From Candidatus Electrothrix yaqonensis (GTDB lineage: Bacteria > Desulfobacterota > Desulfobulbia > Desulfobulbales > Desulfobulbaceae), in NCBI GenBank assembly GCA_047651235.1, contig CP178758.1, positions 2,160,001 to 2,192,000 on the forward strand: a DNA stretch of 32,000 nucleotides, read 5' to 3'. Shown here piece by piece: positions 18,788 to 29,891 of the stretch. The notes beneath the pieces are model-generated. The model made no database searches, was not told the origin of the DNA, and saw only the letters and a list, made by a program, of their open reading frames with translations. The stretch's first letter is position 1; every line of letters begins with the position of its first letter. The position numbers and the translations under genes are program-made.

Positions 18788-21466
18788 ATGTATCATTTTA
18801 AAGGGCTTACCCGGCAGGAAATCGAGGCCTCGCGTATAAAACACGGTTCAAACCAGCTCAGCGCGGTTGAAACAGAGACCTTCTGGGACAAACTGCTGGA
18901 CAATTTTAAAGATCCCATGATCATCATCCTGACCATTGCCCTGGTTATCGTCACGATACTGGCCGCATTCGGGCAGACAGAATGGTATGAAGGAGTGGGT
19001 ATTGCCTTTGCTGTTGTCTTGGCCACCTTGGTAGCCACGGCATCAGAATTTAAAAACGAGCAGACCTTTCAAAAGCTCCAGGAGGAAGCCTCCAAAATAC
19101 AGATCAATGTCTTCCGGGAGGACAGCGTTACGGTTGTCGGCATTGATGACGTCGTTGTCGGTGATGTTATCCTGCTCCAGCCGGGCGATAAAATTCCGGC
19201 GGACGGCAGGATTCTTGAGGGAAAAGTGGCTGTGAGCCAGGCTGCGCTGACCGGTGAACCTGAACCCCGGGGCAAAACTCCGGGAGAGGCGGATGTCTCA
19301 GATCTGGAAGATGCCCATGCCGTGTTCAGAGGAACCGTGATCGAGGACGGCGAGGCCGTTATGGAAGTGCTGCAGGTTGGTGATAACACCCATCTGGGCA
19401 GACTGGCTGAAGAACTGGAAACCGATGAACGTATGGGACCGCTCCGGGTCAAGCTGGCGCGGCTGGCGCACGGGATTGCCGTGTTCGGTTACATTACCGC
19501 CCCGCTGATCGCTCTGGCCTTCCTGTTCAAGGCGGTCTATCTGGACAACAGCGGCGACATGTCAGCGATAGCAGCGTATGCAGCCGACTGGACGCATCTA
19601 CTCTCTGATATTGTCAAAGCCCTGATTCTTGCTGTCATCATTATTGTGGTGGCGGTTCCTGAAGGACTGCCCATGATGATCGCCATTGTCTTGGCTCAGA
19701 ACATGCGCAAGCTGCTCAGGTCCAATGTCCTGGTCCGGCAACTGCTGGGGGTGGAGACCTCAGGCAGCCTGAACCTACTTTTTACTGATAAAACCGGAAC
19801 GGTTACCAAAGGCCTGTTGGAAACCGTGGGCTTTCTGACTGTAGCAGATACGGACATGAAGGATGCGGTAAGACAGTATGACAGTTTTGAAAAATTGCCG
19901 GAACAGAATGCTAGGCTGCTGGATCTGTCGCTGCGGGAAAATACCTCCAGTGTGGTGAACTGCAAGGCAACTACAGAGTCCGAACGGATTGTGGGCGGCA
20001 ACAGTACGGACCGGGCTTTGCTGAAATTTGTCCATGCAGAGAGCACAGAATGTCAGTATGAGGAGAAAACCACGGAAAAAGTGGATGAACTGCTCTTTAA
20101 TTCGACCAGAAAATTTTCCGCAGTCCGCATCAGAAAAGAAGACGGCCAGGAAATGACCCTGATCAAGGGAGCGCCGGAAAAAATCTTTGCGCAATGCGGC
20201 TCTTTTTATGATAGTCAGGGCAATGTTGCTCCCCTTCCGGCAGAGCGAAAAACAGCCATTGTCCAGACCATTGACAGCAGAACCGATGAGGGATTCCGCC
20301 TGATCGCGGTTGCGGTGACCGAGGAACCAATCCCGGCAAATCTGGATGCGATGACAGGTCAGCTGACCCTGCTGGGATTTGCCATGATCCGCGATGATCT
20401 ACGGCCGGAAGCAGCTGACACAGTGAAAGAACTCCACAGTGCCGGGATCCAGGTGGTCATGATCACCGGTGACCGTAAAGGCACGGCTCAGGCCATTGCC
20501 AAAGAGGCAGGCCTAATCACCTCTCCGGACGATGTTGTCCTGACCTCGGATGAAATGGCCGACCTCTCTGATGATGCCTTAAAGAAGATTATCCCGAATC
20601 TGAAAGTTGTCTCCAGATGCCTTCCTTCGGATAAATCCCGCCTCGTCAAAGTAACCCAGGAAATGGGCCTGGTGGTCGGCATGACCGGAGACGGGGTCAA
20701 TGACAGTCCGGCCCTGAGCAGTGCGGATATCGGCTTCGGCCTGGGAAGCGGCACTGAAGTGGCCAAAGAGGCCTCGGATATCGTGGTGCTTGACGACAAT
20801 ATCCAGTCCATTGCTAATGCGGTTCATTACGGCCGGACGATCTACCATTCCATCCAGAAATTTATCACCTTTCAGCTTACCGTCAATGTGGCGGCAATTT
20901 CCATCGCCTTCCTCGGCCCCTTCTTAGGTTTTGAGCTGCCCCTGACCATGATCCAGCTGCTCTGGGTCAACCTGATTATGGATACCTTGGCTGCTCTGGC
21001 CTTTTCCGGTGAGCCGCCTCTGCCGGAATACATGGAGGAAAAACCGAAAGAGCGGGAAGAACATATCATCACCTCAAGGATGTGGCAGTCCATTTTGGGC
21101 AACGGCTTTTTCATGACCGCAGTCTGTGTCCTGTTTTTGAAAGCATCTTTTGTTCACAACCTGTTTGCCAGCGAGGAGGTCTTTATGACCGCCTTTTTCG
21201 GAATATTTGTCTTCCTGAACAACTTCAACAAGTTTAATGTCCGGGTGGAGGACTGGAAGCTGTTTGATCATCTTTCCGCCAACAAAGGATTTTTACAGGT
21301 GGTCGGAATGATTTTTCTGATCCAGATAGTTATCACCTATATCGGCGGCGAGGTGTTCCGGACTGTTGCTTTGGGAGTACAGGACTGGTTCTGGGTTATT
21401 GTGTTTTCCATTGTTATTGTTCCCTTTGATCTTGCAAGAAAAAGTCTTTTCAACAAGAATAAGTAA
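18788..21466 (+). CDS. Ca2+-translocating P-type ATPase (P2B/PMCA-LMCA1-like, single-site type)
   Basis: N-terminal GLTRQEIEASRIKHGSNQL, TGEPEP, TM4 VPEGLPMM, the phosphorylation site DKTGTVT, MITGD, TGDGVNDSPAL, TM5 FQLTVNVAAISIAF (Ala where SERCA has Glu771) and TM6 LWVNLIMDTLAAL. Confidence 0.88.
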   Translation: MYHFKGLTRQEIEASRIKHGSNQLSAVETETFWDKLLDNFKDPMIIILTIALVIVTILAAFGQTEWYEGVGIAFAVVLATLVATASEFKNEQTFQKLQEEASKIQINVFREDSVTVVGIDDVVVGDVILLQPGDKIPADGRILEGKVAVSQAALTGEPEPRGKTPGEADVSDLEDAHAVFRGTVIEDGEAVMEVLQVGDNTHLGRLAEELETDERMGPLRVKLARLAHGIAVFGYITAPLIALAFLFKAVYLDNSGDMSAIAAYAADWTHLLSDIVKALILAVIIIVVAVPEGLPMMIAIVLAQNMRKLLRSNVLVRQLLGVETSGSLNLLFTDKTGTVTKGLLETVGFLTVADTDMKDAVRQYDSFEKLPEQNARLLDLSLRENTSSVVNCKATTESERIVGGNSTDRALLKFVHAESTECQYEEKTTEKVDELLFNSTRKFSAVRIRKEDGQEMTLIKGAPEKIFAQCGSFYDSQGNVAPLPAERKTAIVQTIDSRTDEGFRLIAVAVTEEPIPANLDAMTGQLTLLGFAMIRDDLRPEAADTVKELHSAGIQVVMITGDRKGTAQAIAKEAGLITSPDDVVLTSDEMADLSDDALKKIIPNLKVVSRCLPSDKSRLVKVTQEMGLVVGMTGDGVNDSPALSSADIGFGLGSGTEVAKEASDIVVLDDNIQSIANAVHYGRTIYHSIQKFITFQLTVNVAAISIAFLGPFLGFELPLTMIQLLWVNLIMDTLAALAFSGEPPLPEYMEEKPKEREEHIITSRMWQSILGNGFFMTAVCVLFLKASFVHNLFASEEVFMTAFFGIFVFLNNFNKFNVRVEDWKLFDHLSANKGFLQVVGMIFLIQIVITYIGGEVFRTVALGVQDWFWVIVFSIVIVPFDLARKSLFNKNK

Positions 21467-21578: not shown

Positions 21579-22592
21579 ATGATAAACCATGCGCGATTTT
21601 TTTTTATACAGCGAGATAACAATCCTTTACGAAAAGAGGCATTTACCGCTTCTTTCCTCGGCAAACTGCATCCGGCCCGGCTCCCGCATCTGCAGCGCGG
21701 GAGCTGCTGTCTGGCCCGGTTACTCCGGGCATCCCTTGCCGAACTCCCGGTTTCCGGTAATGTCCTGCTCATCGGTCTGACAGAATCCGGCATTGTTCCT
21801 TCTTTTCTGATGTATCTGGAAGCCTGTCAATTAAACATTCCATGCCGATGGATCTGTTCAACCCGCCGGCTAGGTGAATCCGGGGTCGTTTTTGAGGAAA
21901 CACACTCGCACAGCCCGAATCATACCCTACCGATACCGGAGGCCAGTTTCTCGGAAGTCTGGATTGTCGAAGATGAAATCACCACAGGCCGGACAATACA
22001 GAATCTCCTGCACCAGCTCCAGGATCATGTTGCCGCCCAGATCTTCCGCATATTTTCTCTGGTGGATTTCCGGTCTGCACAGCAGCAGCAAGGTTTTTTA
22101 TCGTTGTTGGATGATCAGACAACAACATATCTTTTTCATACGGCCGTCCATTTGTCCGATATGCAGGGCGACAGCGCTGACTATCCGGATGACTTGGCAG
22201 AAAAAAGCACATATTCATCCGGATATCCTGAATATCTGCTCCCGAAGTTAGCCCCGTCATGCGGTCTGCGATGGAATCAGATACCGCCGGAATCTGCCGA
22301 TGCAACTCTGTTTGTTCTTGGGGAAGCAGTGCATACAGCAGTGCTGCTGGTGGCTGCCGGGAAATTCCGGGATTTTCAGCACATCACCCTCAGTCCGTGG
22401 CTGGTGGATGCATGCAGTATCAGGAGCAGAATAGACCTGCCCGGAAAGCATTATCTCTATAATACAACGAAGCAGGAACTCCGGTCGCCTGTCTTTCTCC
22501 TGCACGATCCGGCAGATCAGGCGATGAGCAGCAAAGTACACAGGGAGCTGGAAGGACAGGGCATACCTGTTCAGCAACTGCACCTTTTATAA
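21579..22592 (+). CDS. Ter-associated phosphoribosyltransferase (PRTase_2 + TRSP-type architecture)
   Basis: PRPP-binding loop VWIVEDEITTGRTIQNLL. Upstream are FLGKLHPARLP and LLIGLTESGIVPS. The C-terminal ~150 aa extension is consistent with the TRSP domain seen C-terminal to this PRTase class in Ter loci. The first in-frame start is 21579, and no SD is evident. Confidence 0.65.
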   Translation: MINHARFFFIQRDNNPLRKEAFTASFLGKLHPARLPHLQRGSCCLARLLRASLAELPVSGNVLLIGLTESGIVPSFLMYLEACQLNIPCRWICSTRRLGESGVVFEETHSHSPNHTLPIPEASFSEVWIVEDEITTGRTIQNLLHQLQDHVAAQIFRIFSLVDFRSAQQQQGFLSLLDDQTTTYLFHTAVHLSDMQGDSADYPDDLAEKSTYSSGYPEYLLPKLAPSCGLRWNQIPPESADATLFVLGEAVHTAVLLVAAGKFRDFQHITLSPWLVDACSIRSRIDLPGKHYLYNTTKQELRSPVFLLHDPADQAMSSKVHRELEGQGIPVQQLHLL

Positions 22593-22620: not shown

Positions 22621-23622
22621 ATGCAGCAGGCAATCCTTCCGGATGCGGAAAACAATTTCTGGCAACAGTATATTTATGTCGATCTGCGGGAAGAGGTGCA
22701 TCCTTTTAACGAAATGCACCGCTTCCGCAGATTGGAACAGGCCTACACCGGCGAAAACACCTTCTGGTCCATTCCTTCTCCGGAACCGGATCTGGATGAT
22801 ACCTTCTGGCAGCATGTGCATGACCAGCTGGACAATAAACAGATCCGGAGGGCAGCACAGCAGCTGGCTGCCGTCATTCTACAGTGGGAAGCGGATCCGG
22901 AGCAGCTTATTTTTGTCGCCATTCTCAGGGCCGGGGTGCCTATTGCAAAGTGGCTCTGTCAGATGCTGCCCGGAGCAGTGAGTGCCGCCATATCGCTTTT
23001 TGTCGGCATCGGCATTGACCGGCAGGCCCTGGCCCGGCTGCAGGCAGATTTCCCGGACCGGAAGATTGTTTTTGTTGACGGTTGGACAGGGCGCGGCGGG
23101 GTTGCCAGAGAACTTGCCCGGCTTGATAAAGGGCCTTTGGCGGTGCTCAATGATCCCTGGGGCTGGGCAGATTTTTCCGGCATTCAGGAGGATATATTCT
23201 GCCCTTCCGCCTGTTTCACCGGCCTGACAACGCTTGGTTTTTCCAGAACCTTTTTTGTGGATGAGCAGCATTTCTTTGCTGCGTACAGATTTCCGGAATC
23301 CCACACCCGCAAAGATCTGGTTGATGCTTGGTGCACAGCCGGACCTGCACAGCCGACCCGCCCTGCTGCGGAAAAATGCAGACATTTTCATCAGGAAACC
23401 GAGCTGCGTATCCACAGCAATGAAGTCTGCCGGGCCTTGATTAATGCTGCGCCCAAGACCCTCTTTTTTACGGATGACGCCCGATATGCTGAGGAGCACT
23501 TCCCTCTGCTGCTGCTTCTGGCGGAACAGCGGGGCGTACCGGTGGAGTATAATCAGACATTTTTAAATAAATATCGTACCCGCGCTGCCTGTTCTCTGCG
23601 TATTGAACAGCTGAAAGCCTAA
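22621..23622 (+). CDS. Ter-associated phosphoribosyltransferase, PRTase_1 type (family often mis-annotated as cysteine protease StiP)
   Basis: LIFVAILRAGVPIAKWL and the PRPP-loop-like IVFVDGWTGRGGVAREL. Size (~330 aa) and its position next to the other PRTase match the Ter biosynthetic module as I remember it. Confidence 0.6.
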   Translation: MQQAILPDAENNFWQQYIYVDLREEVHPFNEMHRFRRLEQAYTGENTFWSIPSPEPDLDDTFWQHVHDQLDNKQIRRAAQQLAAVILQWEADPEQLIFVAILRAGVPIAKWLCQMLPGAVSAAISLFVGIGIDRQALARLQADFPDRKIVFVDGWTGRGGVARELARLDKGPLAVLNDPWGWADFSGIQEDIFCPSACFTGLTTLGFSRTFFVDEQHFFAAYRFPESHTRKDLVDAWCTAGPAQPTRPAAEKCRHFHQETELRIHSNEVCRALINAAPKTLFFTDDARYAEEHFPLLLLLAEQRGVPVEYNQTFLNKYRTRAACSLRIEQLKA

Positions 23623-23672
23623 GATTATACTTGTATAAAATGGATAAATAAAACAAGAACAAGGAGGCTGAT

Positions 23673-24428
23673 ATGGCAGTATGTGTTTTTTGTAAACAGG
23701 AAGAAGGAAATCCGTCCTGTGCGTTCTGTAAAGGTAAAGGAACTCCCGCGACAAAGAAGAGAGCTTCTTCTGCTGAAAAAACGAATACACCCATCCCTAA
23801 ACAGACTGGCCAGATATCTCTCAAGAAAGGCGGTCGCCCTGTTCTTATTCAAAAAACACCTAAAATTACAGCAACTGTCTCCTGGAAAAGCGGCACAGAT
23901 TATGACATATATGCTCTGGTTATGCTTAAAAACGGGGAAGAAATTGCAGTTGCAACATTTGGTGCCATTTTAAAAGAGAAAGGATTGTTTGGGAAAAAAC
24001 ATAGGATTCCTCCCCTTATGAACTTTGGAAACGGTGCGGTAAGTCATCGTGGTGACGTCGTAGGCCGTGGCTCAGAAAAAGGCTTTGAGATTATTGATAT
24101 TCGACTAAATGACGATATTGTTGCAGTTGTTCCAGTGGCGTATTCTGCACAGTCAAACGGGACAGGGTCCTTCTACCGTTACCGTGTTACATTGGAAATT
24201 AACAACAATCAAGGAACGACCGTCACTCTTCCGGCTGAAACTGCGAACAATAATGATCTTATTTATACTTGTGTACCGGGGATTATCTATAATTATCCGA
24301 ACGGCATTCAAATTGAAGCACTTGAACTCTACAGTAAACCAGGTTCTGAGAATCGACCAAAACTCCAGCTTGACAACAACAAAGTTACTGTGCTGATGGA
24401 TATGGGAGCAAAAAATGAATATAAATGA
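23673..24428 (+). CDS. Divergent TerD-domain protein with N-terminal CxxC-x8-CxxCxGxG zinc knuckle
   Basis: N-terminus MAVCVFCKQEEGNPSCAFCKGKG, then a basic linker, then a TerD-like core (ISLKKGGRPVLI...ATVSWKSGTDYDIYALVMLKNG...HRGDVVGRGSEKGFEIIDIRL...YRYRVTL). A strong SD (AAGGAGG) is present. The gene looks AT-richer than its neighbours by eye. Confidence 0.65.
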   Translation: MAVCVFCKQEEGNPSCAFCKGKGTPATKKRASSAEKTNTPIPKQTGQISLKKGGRPVLIQKTPKITATVSWKSGTDYDIYALVMLKNGEEIAVATFGAILKEKGLFGKKHRIPPLMNFGNGAVSHRGDVVGRGSEKGFEIIDIRLNDDIVAVVPVAYSAQSNGTGSFYRYRVTLEINNNQGTTVTLPAETANNNDLIYTCVPGIIYNYPNGIQIEALELYSKPGSENRPKLQLDNNKVTVLMDMGAKNEYK

Positions 24429-24458
24429 ATATCCAACCCCAACTCGCTGGATCTGCTG

Positions 24459-25205
24459 ATGAGAAAAAACACACTGCATTCGCAGAATAAAGCCGTTGCC
24501 GTTGATCTTGACGGTACCTTGGTGCATACGGTGCCGGGGGAATATACCATACCGGGGCGCTCCGGAAACTGTTATCTGTCGCATCGGGCAGTTGAGTTGT
24601 TAGCCGAAATCAGCCGCACCCTGCCGACCTTTATTACAACCGGCAGGAATGCGGCGAGCGTTCAGAAGATAATCCGGCATCTTGAAAAGGTACGTTTTGT
24701 GGGCTTTATCCTGGAAAATGGTTTTGTGGTCAAAAAGGACCTCCGCAGCCCTGATCCTCGAAAAGAGAAGTGGAAATTTGCAGACAAGGTACCGCCGGAC
24801 TGGGAACCCATTCCGGGGTATGAGCGTTCTGCCGGGTTTATCCTGCCCAGAGGACAGAAAAATCCGGCAGAGCTTGTCCGGAATCTATTAAAAGAGACTC
24901 GGGAGCAGGGGTATATCCATTTAAACCAACCGAAAATTTTTGTCTATCCTCAGGAGCCGGATAAAATGCAGGGGCTTGCCGAATTCAATGTCCGGCCGCA
25001 CATAGCACTGGGGAACGATATCAACGATACCCAGCTGATGCAGGCAAGTACCTATCCGGTTACTTTACAGGCTGCACATTCTTCCATCAAAAAAATAGCA
25101 GAAAAAAAGGACGGATACTGTTCACCCTTTGCCGACCATGCCGCAGCAGAGGATATGCTGCGCTGGGCCTGCACCAAGTTATCTGCCCTGTCTTCCTCGT
25201 CCTGA
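24459..25205 (+). CDS. HAD-superfamily phosphatase (Cof/IIB-like)
   Basis: Motif I VAVDLDGTLV, motif II ITTGRN, motif IV LGNDINDTQLM. Confidence 0.75.
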   Translation: MRKNTLHSQNKAVAVDLDGTLVHTVPGEYTIPGRSGNCYLSHRAVELLAEISRTLPTFITTGRNAASVQKIIRHLEKVRFVGFILENGFVVKKDLRSPDPRKEKWKFADKVPPDWEPIPGYERSAGFILPRGQKNPAELVRNLLKETREQGYIHLNQPKIFVYPQEPDKMQGLAEFNVRPHIALGNDINDTQLMQASTYPVTLQAAHSSIKKIAEKKDGYCSPFADHAAAEDMLRWACTKLSALSSSS

Positions 25206-25220
25206 CCTTCCCCTGATCTC

Positions 25221-26525
25221 ATGCGGGATAATGAACATATCACGAGTAATATAAAAGAGTTTCCCGATTCATTCTATCTGCCGAAATATGCAGATGATAT
25301 GTTGTCCCGATACGGAAAACATATTGACATTCTCCTGTCCGAAGGCATCCGCCCCCTTCCGGAACGGCTAACCGCTTTCTTTGCCGTCTCGCCTCAGGGA
25401 AGGTATACAAAAAAAGGAATGGATCAGGCCTTTGTTGCTGCGGAAGGGTTCTCGGGCGTCAACCCCGGTGAACAGGCGGATTATGACCAGGGGGTTCCTC
25501 GGCTGACCGAAGTGGATGTCAGCAGGGCCTTGCAGAAAAATCCGGCCAACAGGCAATGGCTTGTCCTGAGCCTGGAGCGCACAGCGCAGAGATACGGCCT
25601 TGCTCTGTCCGGTGATCTCATACAGAGTAGCTCGCAGTTACTTGATTTTTTGTATCATGAAATTTCGTTCTGGGAGGCAGACAGCTTTCCGTTGGATGCC
25701 ATGATGGACCTGACCAATCAATACCACTGGACCTTCCGATCAGATGCCTGGTCGTTGCGGGAACAGCTGCGGCGGGAGGCCCTGATTATCCATGCTGCCT
25801 GGAAAGAACTGCTCAGACTGTCCCGTCAGCATCCCCTCTTCCTCATCCTTAACCAGGCGACCCCCACGGATTATTTCTGCAGTGCATTACCGCAGGGTGC
25901 ATCCCTGTTTGCACAAGGGACTGATCAGAGTGAGCAGCAGATCCTTGTCTCTGCGGACATCAAGATATCCTCTTCCGAGCACCGGGATACTCTCCAGAAA
26001 ACCTCTGAAGGCGATGCGCTTGAGCAGGCAGTGGAGATCGCCTGTACCGTACAGCGGGTTCCTGTTGTATGTGATCTGTCACGCCGTCGTTTTCCGCGTT
26101 CTTTCCTGCGAATAGCCCGATTTGCCCAGTGCAGAGGCTGGGGGATCCAGCCGCTGGGCAAGCTGGCAGACCCTGCAGCAACACAGCTGCCGCAGGCAAA
26201 ATCCTGTTCCGGCTTTCCGGTCCTGTCCGGTCATCCTGAGCTGCTCCTGTTTGACCCGTGGCCTATCTCGGATACGCAGATCGTGCCGGAACTGCCTCCG
26301 GATATTTCGGATAGGTTTGTGACTGCTCCGCAGACAAAACCCTGGCAGGATGATCGGATCGGGGCAAGAAATGAGCTGGAAATGGATGAACACGGACAGT
26401 ACCGTGCCGGAGCGCAAAGCTGGGTACTGCCTGTTCCGGGCGGCTGGATGCGGGTGCATGATCTGTTCAAAAGTCGCATGGCCCGGTTCCTGCGCGGGAT
26501 GGATTCGTCGCTGTATATTATCTAG
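25221..26525 (+). CDS. Hypothetical protein, 434 aa, no recognisable domain
   Basis: A long ORF tightly packed between the two HAD genes (15-nt and 14-nt gaps). Its codon usage resembles that of its neighbours. I see no motif I can assign. Confidence 0.6.
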   Translation: MRDNEHITSNIKEFPDSFYLPKYADDMLSRYGKHIDILLSEGIRPLPERLTAFFAVSPQGRYTKKGMDQAFVAAEGFSGVNPGEQADYDQGVPRLTEVDVSRALQKNPANRQWLVLSLERTAQRYGLALSGDLIQSSSQLLDFLYHEISFWEADSFPLDAMMDLTNQYHWTFRSDAWSLREQLRREALIIHAAWKELLRLSRQHPLFLILNQATPTDYFCSALPQGASLFAQGTDQSEQQILVSADIKISSSEHRDTLQKTSEGDALEQAVEIACTVQRVPVVCDLSRRRFPRSFLRIARFAQCRGWGIQPLGKLADPAATQLPQAKSCSGFPVLSGHPELLLFDPWPISDTQIVPELPPDISDRFVTAPQTKPWQDDRIGARNELEMDEHGQYRAGAQSWVLPVPGGWMRVHDLFKSRMARFLRGMDSSLYII

Positions 26526-26539
26526 AAATCTGAACACTT

Positions 26540-28525
26540 ATGCAACAAAAAACAGTCTTTGTTTTTGATCTTGATGGGACCATGAATCATGCCGCGCCTG
26601 TGCCCGGCGGCTTACCCATTCGGGGCCGAACAACCGATTCGTTTCTGGATGGGCGGGTTATTGAGCTGCTACTCGAACTTGCAGAGGTGACCGATCTGTA
26701 TGTTGCGACCGGCAGGTCACGGACAACCGTCGAGGATTTCAGGAGTCATTTTTCTGCTGCCGGTATCCGGATTTCCGGCTGGATACTGGAGCACGGCACC
26801 CAGATTAAGGGCCACCCAGCCTGGACGGAAAAAGTCCTGACCGGGATCGATCTTGTTGCGGTTCATGCCCGGGCCGGAGAAATTATTCAGAAGAACGGTT
26901 ATACCATTGATACGGAATGCTACCGGGAGGCGCATCAGTCCATTCTGCTGTACTCCGGCAGGGACCGGTGCGAGGCCGAAGCACTGCTGTCCCGGCTTGC
27001 CGGTGTACTGAACAACCGCTTCAGAACCATTGTCGGCTCCCGGAAGATTGTCCTTATTCCCAAAGGTGGCGATAAATATGCTGCTTTCCAAGCCGTGTTC
27101 GGAAAAACGCATACTCTCTGCTGTGCAGCCGGTGATATGCCAGATGACCTGACCCTGTTGCGCCACGCAGCTTTTCCTCTGACCCTGCGGAGCGCTTCCC
27201 CCCTTGTGCAGAGATATGTGGAGGAGCGCGGCGGTTTTGTCGCTGCCGAGGGCGGGCATGAGGGGACGGCAGAAGTTCTCCGGGCGGCCCTGGCATATTT
27301 CCGGGGTAAACATTCCGGGCTGCCTGTGCCTGGTCCGCGCCTGCCTGTGGAAGAGATGGAATCCTTCCGGCCTTCCCGATGCAGTTTTCTGGACCGGCTG
27401 TTCCGCGATGTTCGGTTTCCTGAACAAGAACCGGATATTGATCGGATCAGGCAGGCAGCCTCTCAGCTTGATGGAGGCAGAAATACTGTTGTTGAAGTAC
27501 GGATGCGGGACTGGGGCGGAGAAGCGAAATCTTTGCGCAGCCTGCTCAACGCAATGGTTCCGCTTATTCCGTATGCGCACTGGCGGCTTGTCTTTCGGCA
27601 GGAACGTCTTGGTGCAGACAATCTGCAGGATTTTCAGGTCATCACGGCTCGACTGGCCGATTTCTCTTTGCTGCCCGACGGGACGCACCGTTTTTCTGCG
27701 CCCGGTGTGCCGAACTCGCCACAAGAAGAAAGGGAATCCGCAATAACCTTATTGCTCTATGATCATCCGGAGGATATGGGGCCTTGGTATGATCATGCTG
27801 TACCCCGGCTGATAACCCGCCATCCGCAGGATACTACAGCTTGGTTTATCAATCCGATGTTTCTGAAGATTTCCGGCATCAGCACTGGACTGACCAGTAA
27901 GAATCGTGCTGCCCGGCAGATACACTATGCAGGCCCCAAGGTCATGATGGCGGCAAATATCGTCGATGACACGGATATCCGGATTGCCGTGCAGGGATTC
28001 GAGCAGTTATCCCCTGCTCTGGACGCGCTTATTCTTGCACCCCGTGTGGTAACCAATCCGCAGCGCAATAAAAAAATCAGAGAAGCTGCAGCCTCTGTCA
28101 GCAAAGAGATATCCTTTCTTTCCCGGCTCTCCCCGACAGACCGCCCCCGTATCCTCCTGGTCGATACCTACGGTGACTTAGAAAATTTGTATACCCATTG
28201 CTGCATAACCTATCTGGGTGGCGGCTTTGACCCGAGAAAACGAGGTTTTGATCCTATGGAATCTCTGGCTGCCAAGGTACCGGTTATTTTGGGGCCGCTC
28301 TATGATTTCAACCGGATAGCAGTAGACTCGTTCAGGCAGACCGGGTGGGTAAATATCCTTACGCAGGAAGAAACCGGTGTAGAGGATTTTGTCGGCATCG
28401 CTAAAAATTTACTGAAGCGTAAACCGGATGGCCGGACATTACACAATGTTTTGCAAATCCGAAGATTGGATACCCTGCGTATTGCAGAGGAACTGCTGCA
28501 GGATTTTGCAAAAACAGGGGGATGA
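26540..28525 (+). CDS. Fusion protein: N-terminal HAD phosphatase + C-terminal GT-B glycosyltransferase resembling Kdo transferase (WaaA/KdtA, GT30)
   Basis: HAD motifs VFVFDLDGTMNH, VATGRS and AAGDMPDDLTLL. The C-terminal RILLVDTYGDLENLYTHCCITYLGGGFDPRKRGFDPMESLAAKVPVILGPLYDFNRIA aligns by eye with the WaaA pattern GDSMGEL..LY..AD.AFVGGSLV..GGHNPLE.AA...PV..GP....F..I. Confidence 0.65.
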   Translation: MQQKTVFVFDLDGTMNHAAPVPGGLPIRGRTTDSFLDGRVIELLLELAEVTDLYVATGRSRTTVEDFRSHFSAAGIRISGWILEHGTQIKGHPAWTEKVLTGIDLVAVHARAGEIIQKNGYTIDTECYREAHQSILLYSGRDRCEAEALLSRLAGVLNNRFRTIVGSRKIVLIPKGGDKYAAFQAVFGKTHTLCCAAGDMPDDLTLLRHAAFPLTLRSASPLVQRYVEERGGFVAAEGGHEGTAEVLRAALAYFRGKHSGLPVPGPRLPVEEMESFRPSRCSFLDRLFRDVRFPEQEPDIDRIRQAASQLDGGRNTVVEVRMRDWGGEAKSLRSLLNAMVPLIPYAHWRLVFRQERLGADNLQDFQVITARLADFSLLPDGTHRFSAPGVPNSPQEERESAITLLLYDHPEDMGPWYDHAVPRLITRHPQDTTAWFINPMFLKISGISTGLTSKNRAARQIHYAGPKVMMAANIVDDTDIRIAVQGFEQLSPALDALILAPRVVTNPQRNKKIREAAASVSKEISFLSRLSPTDRPRILLVDTYGDLENLYTHCCITYLGGGFDPRKRGFDPMESLAAKVPVILGPLYDFNRIAVDSFRQTGWVNILTQEETGVEDFVGIAKNLLKRKPDGRTLHNVLQIRRLDTLRIAEELLQDFAKTGG

Positions 28526-28560: not shown

Positions 28561-29142
28561 TCAGGCCGCACTTACGCCGTATTTTGCGCAGACCTGCCCA
28601 AGCCCTTCCTCTGATCCCTGCCCTACAGCCTTAAACTTCCATTCGCCGTTTTTAAGATACACTTCGCCAAATATCACTGCGGTCTCCTTAAAAAAATCTT
28701 CAGTCAGGTCGTAACGCGTAATTTCCACATCATCGACTGCGTTGACAATCCGAATAAAGGCATTCTCCACCATCCCGAAGTTCTGACCGCGTTTGTCTGC
28801 TTCGTGAATTGTCACCACAAATACGGCTTTAACCAGTTCCGGGGGCATATCTTTCAGCGACATCATGATGACCTCGTCATCCCCTTCACCTTCGCCGGTC
28901 AGGTTATCCCCGGTATGGACAACAGCACCATTGGCGCCCTGCAGGTTGCCGTAGAAAATAAAATCCTGGTCACCCGTCACTTTGCCGTCCGCACCGCAAA
29001 GAAATATCGAGGCATCAAGATCAAACTCAGCCCCGCCCAGAGCTTGGGCATCCCAGCCGCAGCCGACCTTGATGGCTTCCAGTCCCGGAGCTTCTTTGCT
29101 CAAAGAAATATTGGCGCCTTTTTTTAATGATAATACAGCCAT
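28561..29142 (-). CDS. terD: TerD-family tellurite/stress resistance protein (canonical, Ca2+-binding motifs intact)
   Basis: MAVLSLKKGANISLSKE, FDLDASIFLCGADGKV, GDNLTGEGEGDDEVI, ENAFIRIVN and EWKFKAVGQG. It is collinear with TerD/TerE/TerZ. Confidence 0.92.
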   Translation of the reverse strand: MAVLSLKKGANISLSKEAPGLEAIKVGCGWDAQALGGAEFDLDASIFLCGADGKVTGDQDFIFYGNLQGANGAVVHTGDNLTGEGEGDDEVIMMSLKDMPPELVKAVFVVTIHEADKRGQNFGMVENAFIRIVNAVDDVEITRYDLTEDFFKETAVIFGEVYLKNGEWKFKAVGQGSEEGLGQVCAKYGVSAA

Positions 29143-29198: not shown

Positions 29199-29891
29199 TT
29201 ATTTTCTTCCTGTTCCTTTGCAGAACACACAGTTTCCGCCTGCACCTTTGCACATAGGGCATGGAACACCTGTCGGCGACGGTCCCGGCTGTGACGGTGG
29301 TGATGAAGGCGTCTGTCGGGGAGGAGGCGGTGCTGAAGACGGCAGGGCCTTCGGTGCCGACTTCGGGGCTGACCCGGTATTGAGGGACAGATTGAATTCT
29401 CCGGCCAGCGAGTGGACATCCACCCGTATGACTTGGGCATGACGTTCAATACAGGCCTGCTCTTGGGGGTCACAATCCCCGTCAGCAGCGGCAACTGCCA
29501 GAGCACAGAGAATGACCAGTCTGGCCAGTTCCGGATCCTCAATATTTCGGACAGCCAAGAGAATAGCCTCCTCATCGCAGAGAAAAGCCGATACCGCATA
29601 GTGCTCCATCTTCTTGACGAGTTCATCTATGCTGAACATTTCCAAGATAGGAGTATCCCGACAATTCTGCAACAGAAATTTACGGAATTCTTCCAATTCT
29701 TCCCGGTACAGCCGCCCGTTCTGCGAGGCAACATCGCCGACTACGGCACAGAGTGCCTCGACAAACGGCTCAAATTTTTTCCGTTTAAACCTATTCCCGA
29801 TTCCTTTGAATGCATTGCCCACGCCGCCGATAAAATCAGCAGATGAGTTGACCATCTGCTCTCCGGTCCGCCCCCAATTTCTTTGCGCCAT
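29199..29891 (-). CDS. terB: TerB-domain protein with Pro-rich linker and C-terminal CxxCxGxG-x2-CxxCxGxG zinc knuckle
   Basis: RFKRKKFEPFVEALCAVVGDVASQNGRLYREELEEFRKFL and LVILCALAVAAADGDCDPQEQACIERHAQ align with E. coli TerB as remembered. The C-terminus is SAPPPPRQTPSSPPSQPGPSPTGVPCPMCKGAGGNCVFCKGTGRK. Confidence 0.8.
   Translation of the reverse strand: MAQRNWGRTGEQMVNSSADFIGGVGNAFKGIGNRFKRKKFEPFVEALCAVVGDVASQNGRLYREELEEFRKFLLQNCRDTPILEMFSIDELVKKMEHYAVSAFLCDEEAILLAVRNIEDPELARLVILCALAVAAADGDCDPQEQACIERHAQVIRVDVHSLAGEFNLSLNTGSAPKSAPKALPSSAPPPPRQTPSSPPSQPGPSPTGVPCPMCKGAGGNCVFCKGTGRK

Follow-up and report, generated by a model that had tools for sequence, protein, structure and literature searches.

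To our knowledge, the mechanism of the Ter (tellurite-resistance, phage-exclusion) systems has remained unknown after decades. The closest described relatives of the protein reported here are canonical TerD (PF02342; Klebsiella 2kxt/2kxv, Streptomyces 3ibz), the two-domain TerA proteins of about 385–415 amino acids (aa) of Neobacillus niacini, Bacillus altitudinis and enterobacterial terZABCDE, and stand-alone proteins of phages and plasmids. Its N-terminus recalls the zinc-knuckle TerB of cable bacteria and the cysteine-rich (CR) domain of DnaJ. The DnaJ CR domain contains four CxxCxGxG motifs and two Zn centres, and two adjacent motifs folded as a hairpin form one Zn(Cys)4 centre. In published comparative work, TerD and TerB are viewed as sensors that bind a nucleoside-like signal, which is made by phosphoribosyltransferase (PRTase) and HAD enzymes (PMC7824862, section 3.4.10). 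Here we describe a gene at 23673..24428 (+) in a 32,000-nucleotide stretch of Candidatus Electrothrix yaqonensis (contig CP178758.1, positions 2,160,001 to 2,192,000; the window is this whole stretch). By homology, its product (the target) is a stand-alone copy of the second, C-terminal domain of TerA, named TerA-C in the following. In place of the N-terminal canonical TerD domain of TerA, the target has a Cys4 knuckle of 23 residues, followed by a flexible linker of about 22 residues. Within a known Ter system, the locus combines a domain architecture that is new with a clear insertion of a cassette. It is an incremental and testable addition, and current views are not overturned. The features of the gene are:

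23673..24428 (+), whole gene, encoding knuckle, linker and TerA-C (TerD-fold) domain; from the open reading frame, homologues, AlphaFold2 (AF2) model, Foldseek and hhalign

23673..23741 (+), putative N-terminal Cys4 knuckle, residues 1-23, MAVCVFCKQEEGNPSCAFCKGKG; conserved in orthologues

23742..23807 (+), flexible linker, residues 24-45; AF2 local confidence (pLDDT) <50 for residues 21-38, sequence varies among orthologues

23808..24425 (+), predicted TerA C-terminal-type TerD-fold beta-sandwich, residues 46-251; from identity, hhalign and Foldseek

23898..23906 (+), D76-Y77-D78, counterpart of the canonical TerD DLD in the BLASTP and hhalign alignments

23967..24005 (+), basic loop, an extension of about 11 residues, residues 99-111, ILKEKGLFGKKHR; Electrothrix-specific

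24051..24089 (+), GDVVGRGSEKGFE, residues 127-139, counterpart of the TerD Ca2+ motif GDNLTGEGEGDDE by BLASTP and hhalign

24141..24173 (+), YSAQSNGTGSF, residues 157-167, TerA-C subfamily signature; invariant columns in our alignments A1 and A2

The open reading frame encodes 251 aa plus the stop codon. An AAGGAGG Shine–Dalgarno sequence, a strong ribosome-binding site (RBS), is found at 23661-23667, 5 nt 5' of the ATG, so the Cys-rich N-terminus is very likely translated. AAGGAGG is also present upstream of the start of the orthologue in Candidatus Electrothrix sp. AX5 (P0003). As an earlier note on this DNA had read it, the protein starts with CxxC-x8-CxxCxGxG; in full, MAVCVFCKQEEGNPSCAFCKGKG is C4-x2-C7-x8-C16-x2-C19-x-G-x-G. 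Outside the knuckle the only Cys is C200. The linker region, described in the same note as basic, has 7 Lys/Arg against 1 Glu in residues 20-45, but its basic character varies in orthologues. Among the rows of alignment A1, the basic loop ILKEKGLFGKKHR is seen in the target, P0003 and P0004 only.

Our homologue search retrieved 824 relatives of the target. The closest one is the AX5 protein with 85% identity, encoded in the same operon slot. Most of the other relatives are about 410 aa long, are annotated as 'TerA' or 'TerD family' and belong to Bacillus, Neobacillus and Paenibacillus. Residues 41-251 of the target share 55-63% identity with the C-terminal domain of two-domain TerA proteins, and 61% identity over 212 residues is observed with residues 211-411 of a Neobacillus TerA (P0016). 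The Pfam TerD model spans residues 3-168 of the TerA homologues of about 400 aa, which is their N-terminal half. The target is thus the second domain of TerA standing alone. It has only 45 residues (knuckle and linker) before this domain, and the N-terminal canonical TerD domain is absent. The description as a divergent TerD-like protein therefore holds for the fold, but more precisely the protein is the TerA C-terminal domain and no generic divergent TerD.

TerA-C forms a highly conserved branch of its own within the TerD beta-sandwich superfamily. The subfamily is small (135 representatives at the 50% clustering level), and its invariant residues include YSAQSNGTGSF, DYD, H125-x-G-D and C200-V-P-G (alignments A1 and A2). 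All invariant columns are kept in the target. TerA-C is found in two forms, as the second half of two-domain TerA and as stand-alone proteins of about 200 aa, including those of Streptomyces phages and actinobacterial plasmids. With two-domain TerA the target shares the C-terminal domain with its YSAQSNGTGSF, DYD and GD...E, whereas the Cys4 knuckle takes the place of the N-terminal canonical TerD domain, the extra basic loop of about 11 residues is present, and the target lies inside the operon while TerA lies beside it. With the stand-alone proteins it shares the single domain, the subfamily and 40-48% identity; examples are phrog_22042, gp76 of Streptomyces phage FlowerPower ('tellurium resistance protein D family') and the 'TerD family protein' of Rhodococcus and Curtobacterium plasmids. 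Unlike the target, however, no inspected representative of these has a knuckle, and they are not in PRTase/HAD operons. In the domain tree, the target and its AX5 orthologue fall into a well-supported clade of 10 rows. This clade mixes knuckle-bearing, plain stand-alone and two-domain forms, and thus the architecture of TerA-C changes often.

The AF2 model of full-length TerA has two domains connected by a 40-residue disordered linker (predicted template-modelling score, pTM, 0.55). We also considered a split TerA, in which the stand-alone C-domain would pair in trans with the neighbouring TerD. No support was found for it, as no fixed packing is predicted in this full-length model. One stand-alone homologue, P0009 (L004 3512-7270), adjoins vWA-TerF-like, GmrSD_C, phage-tail-like DUF1833 and NlpC/P60 genes. 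This neighbourhood suggests that it is part of a prophage or a defence island.

The TerD fold proposed from the sequence is borne out by both profile comparison and structure prediction. The AF2 model of the target (pLDDT 82) is all-beta from residue 47. A Foldseek search of the Protein Data Bank (PDB) with this model gives four chains below E 1e-3, the next match being at E >7e-3. Two of them are the TerD structures 2kxt (E 4.8e-6, template-modelling score TMt 0.54) and 3ibz (E 5.6e-6, TMt 0.58). The other two are the TerD relative 2qng and chain B of 9a6r, which we take to be the B. subtilis TerD-family protein SCP2/YceC. A domain-only hhalign comparison of 78 TerA-C with 26 canonical TerD domains yields a probability of 98.1%, E 8.5e-14, over 125 columns and leaves the C-terminal third (residues 190-251) unaligned. 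BLASTP aligns the target with the TerD of the window at E 7e-4. Because Foldseek, hhalign and BLASTP agree, the domain is predicted to have the TerD-type beta-sandwich fold. In a PDB profile search with the full-length alignment A2, TerD was matched only via the N-terminal domain of the TerA rows; this search is uninformative on the target and was replaced by the domain-only hhalign. A single-sequence search of PDB sequences with the target gives 3ibz as the sole match (E 0.35). The target does not reach the gathering threshold of PF02342 (25.3 bits), and no TerD match appears even at E 10, whereas the canonical TerD of the window scores 252 bits. In summary, the beta-sandwich, the profile homology, the DxD site and the starting G-D and final E of the loop are common to the target and canonical TerD; the lack of a Pfam match at any threshold, the TM-score of 0.54-0.58 and the missing acidic GDGDDE cluster set them apart.

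The metal-binding positions follow the same division. D76-Y-D78 aligns with the DLD of the window TerD in both BLASTP and hhalign and is nearly invariant in the TerA-C subfamily, so the first acidic site is kept, as had been claimed, with DYD (76-78) in the DLD position. GDVVGRGSEKGFE (127-139) aligns with GDNLTGEGEGDDE of the window TerD by the same two methods. The Ca2+ loop of TerD, which reportedly reads GDN(R/L)TG(E/A)GDGDDE, is not matched by the target, in which G127, D128 and E139 are the only kept positions. Across the subfamily these three residues do not vary and the acidic cluster is missing (A1, A2). As judged from these alignments, the weak Ca2+ motif is therefore a trait of the TerA-C family and not a decay in the target gene. 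The earlier view of a degenerate Ca2+ motif is right in that the acidic cluster is gone (GDVVGRGSEKGFE instead of GDNLTGEGEGDDE), but nothing has been degraded in the target itself, as the loss is common to the whole subfamily.

The knuckle fits the generic Cys4 zinc knuckle or ribbon pattern: two CxxC pairs, a short loop and conservation among relatives. When all six frames of the 3.74-Mb genome were scanned for CxxC-x4-12-CxxCxGxG, open frames of 60 aa or more gave four matches: the target, the TerB at a distance of 5.5 kb, one DnaJ-like frame and one frame of 69 aa. P0003 (in each of its two tandem copies), P0005, L033 and P0216 retain all four Cys. P0007, which is without its start, shows three knuckle Cys. 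The Cys motif is thus conserved in orthologues. In the AX5 orthologue (L002 5186-5443), the knuckle with its linker occurs twice in tandem and in frame, at a distance of 129 nt. In a close relative of P0005 (L032 1021-1774), a TAA is found at the ninth codon, inside the knuckle (MAICGMCK, then stop); it is either a pseudogene, a sequencing error or a knuckle-loss variant.

The same knuckle is found on other proteins. It is identical in 22 of 23 positions to the N-terminus of the vWA-TerF-like protein P0216, and over the 23 codons the two genes have 15 synonymous differences and 1 non-synonymous difference. These comparisons mark the knuckle as a real, selected module under strong purifying selection. 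Two different vWA-TerF-like proteins (PF10138; L033 1360-2244 and L012 14-949) begin with MAVC(A/V)FCKQEEGNP(S/E)CAFCK. A protein of 312 aa with MORN-like repeats and membrane helices at its C-terminus (L031 11486-12424, −) starts with the knuckle, in the form MMSICGMCKKPEGNPDCAFCK, and adjoins FHA, Virul_Fac and SrfB-like genes outside any Ter context. A scan with the DNA pattern of the knuckle gave 0 matches in species-representative genomes and 4 in JGI metagenomes.

A comparison with the DnaJ CR domain shows that the CxxCxGxG signature is common to both. However, the target has one CxxCxGxG and a plain CxxC, and TerB has two CxxCxGxG, so that each would make one centre and not two. No match of the knuckle to Pfam DnaJ_CXXCXGXG (PF00684) is found at E 10, and the target has neither a J domain nor a chaperone context. 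The TerY-C metal-binding domain PF15616 likewise gives no match with the target at E 10. The proposal of a DnaJ-type half-site is not upheld, as the four Cys of each knuckle suffice for one complete tetrahedral site. For the same reason the suggested intermolecular Zn site is not needed, and no support for it was found.

The TerB encoded in the same cluster is, like the target, a soluble Ter protein with a small Cys4 knuckle on a long flexible linker. Its C-terminal knuckle reads CPMCKGAGGNCVFCKGTGRK (29202..29261, −, from the sequence read). Of the 30 other TerB relatives found in cable bacteria, 29 have the pattern C[PL]MCKGAGG[SN]C[VM]FCKGTG unchanged, and the remaining one retains the four Cys but has a longer spacer. 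The linker before the TerB knuckle is hypervariable in these 30 relatives, and knuckle-bearing TerB also occurs in genera without the target gene. The knuckle of TerB is C-terminal with a spacer of 6, whereas that of the target is N-terminal with a spacer of 8. Furthermore, TerB is resident in the lineage (third-position GC content, GC3, 0.53), in contrast to the foreign cassette of the target. The two proteins had been thought to share an add-on module; TerB does have a similar knuckle, but it is of a related style and not the same module. A copying of the target knuckle from the resident TerB tail is ruled out by the spacing and by the GC3 of 0.32 in the knuckle versus 0.53 in TerB. The knuckle codons are as low in GC3 as the rest of the gene, and the knuckle therefore came with the cassette and not from TerB. 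At one related locus (L029 6208-7515, in G092), the TerD gene follows the TerB gene in frame, and in tblastn target residues 3-157 align across the TerB knuckle, the spacer and the N-terminal half of TerD. The order of knuckle and then TerD exists at the gene-order level in relatives.

Composition and gene order indicate how the gene reached its position. The target gene has a GC content of 0.415 and a GC3 of 0.333, versus a GC3 of 0.53-0.62 in the neighbour genes. For genome-wide long open frames the mean GC3 is 0.594 (sd 0.088), with the 5th percentile at 0.416. The gene is thus AT-richer than its neighbours, as it had looked by eye, and the difference is an effect of synonymous sites. Both Electrothrix copies have a GC3 of about 0.33, with neighbours at 0.45-0.62, and the nearest knuckle-bearing relatives are on metagenome contigs of 38-40% GC. 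Among 119 genomes of the family, a homologue is present in the genome of the target only (0 of the 118 others). AX5 is the sole other Electrothrix with the gene, which fills the same spacer between the StiP-type PRTase and HAD genes with its own RBS. The operon of G103, from the same genus, has PRTase_2, StiP, HAD, the 434-aa protein, HAD-GT, TerD and TerB, and about 27 nt separate the StiP stop from HAD with no gene between. The same operon without the target gene is found in G103, G087, G088 and G092, and the gene is therefore not a conserved operon component. By these comparisons the target gene is a lineage-specific insertion, which arrived as a compositionally foreign cassette precisely in the StiP–HAD spacer. 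The cassette has since been kept intact in two Electrothrix lineages. The suspected later acquisition is thus substantiated by the foreign GC3, the empty slot of G103 and the 118 family genomes without a homologue. In G097, of the same genus, a type I restriction-modification system (HsdM, HsdS, HsdR; L026 8515-15355) lies between StiP and HAD-GT and replaces the HAD and 434-aa genes. With this system in the same slot, the StiP–HAD point of the operon is a recurrent insertion site. Reading of the insertion junctions found no flanking direct or inverted repeats and no integrase or other mobile-element genes; no formal repeat search was made.

The cassette and the genes around it are:

21579-22592 (+), PRTase_2 gene; Pfam PF15609, 2.2e-18

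22621-23622 (+), StiP-type PRTase gene; Pfam PF11202, 3e-23

23623..24458 (+), inserted cassette (about 0.83 kb) that makes up the entire spacer from StiP stop to HAD start, with its own RBS and the target gene; from the G103 comparison and GC3

24459-25205 (+), HAD hydrolase gene, directly downstream of the target

25221-26525 (+), 434-aa protein of unassigned family, operon member

26540-28525 (+), gene of a HAD plus Kdo-transferase-like protein, operon member

28561..29142 (−), canonical TerD with intact GDNLTGEGEGDDE motif; PF02342 3.5e-75, 2kxt 6.6e-72

29891..29199 (−), TerB gene, whose product ends in the knuckle CPMCKGAGGNCVFCKGTGRK

The target lies between the StiP-type PRTase and HAD genes on the same strand, with gaps of 50 nt and 30 nt, and thus inside the biosynthetic operon as first described. 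No terminator-like site is seen on the + strand between StiP, target and HAD, and a promoter and terminator scan around the target gave nothing above chance. In a Desulfuromonadaceae genome, TerA directly precedes an operon of ATP-grasp, PRTase, HAD and StiP genes.

The identity of the protein is well supported, and we infer that it serves the Ter system as a tethered sensor or adaptor. The reading towards which we lean, by a small measure, is a knuckle-tethered TerA-C that was inserted in the Ter operon and serves as a sandwich sensor with a metal docking head. The beta-sandwich would be the working part, a sensor or binding domain, and probably keeps one metal site (D76, D78, D128, E139) or a ligand site. 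By analogy with other TerD and TerB domains, it would sense Ca2+, the nucleoside-like compound made by the surrounding operon, or both. The knuckle would bind one metal ion, most likely Zn, via its own four Cys. It would be a small tethered docking head for a partner that is common to the knuckle-bearing Ter parts (TerB, vWA-TerF-like), and it would take over the role of the tethered N-terminal TerD domain of full-length TerA. Since the same plan of head, tether and TerA-C is seen in the AF2 model of full-length TerA and in the target, the knuckle is proposed as the head.

Several observations weigh against this reading. The target has no match in Pfam and NCBIfam, even at E 10, and none among the PADLOC models. 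In a related-loci search with YSAQSNGTGSF as the pattern, the best 80 species-level loci were all two-domain TerA without knuckle (80/80). Only 2 of these 80 loci, one of them that of the Desulfuromonadaceae genome, adjoin biosynthetic genes, and the operon link of the target may therefore be incidental. With the acidic Ca2+ cluster lost, Ca2+ sensing by the target is uncertain. In addition, the knuckle is modelled without metal and at low confidence (AF2 pLDDT about 55).

Other roles for the knuckle and the cassette have to be weighed. The knuckle itself could be the sensor, as a Zn(Cys)4 redox switch or as a thiol site for tellurite, thiol-reactive oxidants or soft metals, which would alter the state of TerA-C, TerB or vWA. 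Four invariant Cys on a flexible tether on several Ter parts would suit such a role. Ter systems are linked to thiol-reactive oxyanions and metals. Moreover, CxxCxGxG is DnaJ-like, and the clearly genic paired-motif frames of the genome are the two Ter genes and the DnaJ-like frame only. The presence of the knuckle on the MORN-like membrane protein beside Srf-like genes, outside the Ter context, argues against this role, and we regard it as unlikely. Sensing and docking by the knuckle are not mutually exclusive. It is very improbable that the four Cys hold Fe in a rubredoxin-like Fe(Cys)4 centre, whose one-electron redox chemistry would suit an electroactive cable bacterium. Two CxxC pairs with a short loop are also the arrangement of rubredoxin knuckles, and Zn and Fe are not distinguishable from sequence alone. 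However, the rubredoxin signatures CxxCG and CPxCG are absent from the motif, no Pfam rubredoxin match is found even at E 10, and the nearest relatives with a knuckle are found on unrelated low-GC contigs of marine metagenomes and not in cable bacteria in particular.

We also considered that the cassette is a modulator or passenger derived from a mobile element or phage in a defence-like island hot spot, interfering with the host Ter system or having no role in the chemistry of the operon. The target matches phrog_22042 (E 2e-12), and stand-alone homologues are found in 20 records of Streptomyces phages and on plasmids of actinobacteria and Paenibacillus. P0009 with its neighbouring DUF1833, NlpC/P60 and GmrSD_C genes, the restriction-modification system in the slot of G097 and the foreign composition of the target gene point in the same direction. 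On the other hand, the target is co-oriented with the operon, with gaps of 50 and 30 nt, a strong RBS and no flanking terminator. It keeps 85% identity and all subfamily-invariant residues in two Electrothrix species, and no integrase, repeats or mobile-element genes were seen on reading the flanking junctions. We judge a phage-type passenger to be quite improbable.

Returning to the tethered sensor with a docking head, the locus isolates the conserved, unstudied second domain of TerA from its TerD partner and offers a natural single-domain construct for structural and binding studies. TerA-C lies here inside an operon thought to make a nucleoside-like signal, and binding of the product by TerA-C is suggested for direct test. 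The exchange of a tiny Cys4 knuckle among several Ter components under strong purifying selection points to a common docking or sensing step. A bolder form of the docking proposal is that Ter-type stress and defence systems use the Cys4 knuckle of 23 residues as a portable address tag, one that has not been described before. Such a self-contained, tethered metal-thiolate head could be placed on different proteins, N-terminal on TerA-C, vWA-TerF-like and MORN-like proteins and in a sister form C-terminal on TerB, and would lead them to one common receptor or couple them to thiol or metal stress. We hold this idea tentatively, as rather doubtful. If true, such a tag would be the first concrete handle on the assembly or sensing of the Ter complex.

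Some further observations concern the operon and the other Ter genes of the genome. The 434-aa protein (25221-26525) has no match in Pfam or NCBIfam even at E 10 and is 61-65% identical in AX5 and G103. The slot between the kinase and PRTase_2 genes is variable: a P-type Ca2+-ATPase is found here (18788-21466), and PgpA with a Na+/Ca2+ exchanger in AX5 (L002 1319-3035) and G097 (L026 4534-6250). A knuckle-less vWA-TerF-like gene is located elsewhere in the genome of the target (G000:C1:960816-961490). The same genome has a second Ter cluster (G000:C1:2884236-2887342), with no knuckle in any of its genes; it encodes two TerD, a TerY-type vWA protein and a TerD of 338 aa with a fused, restriction-endonuclease-like region at its C-terminus.

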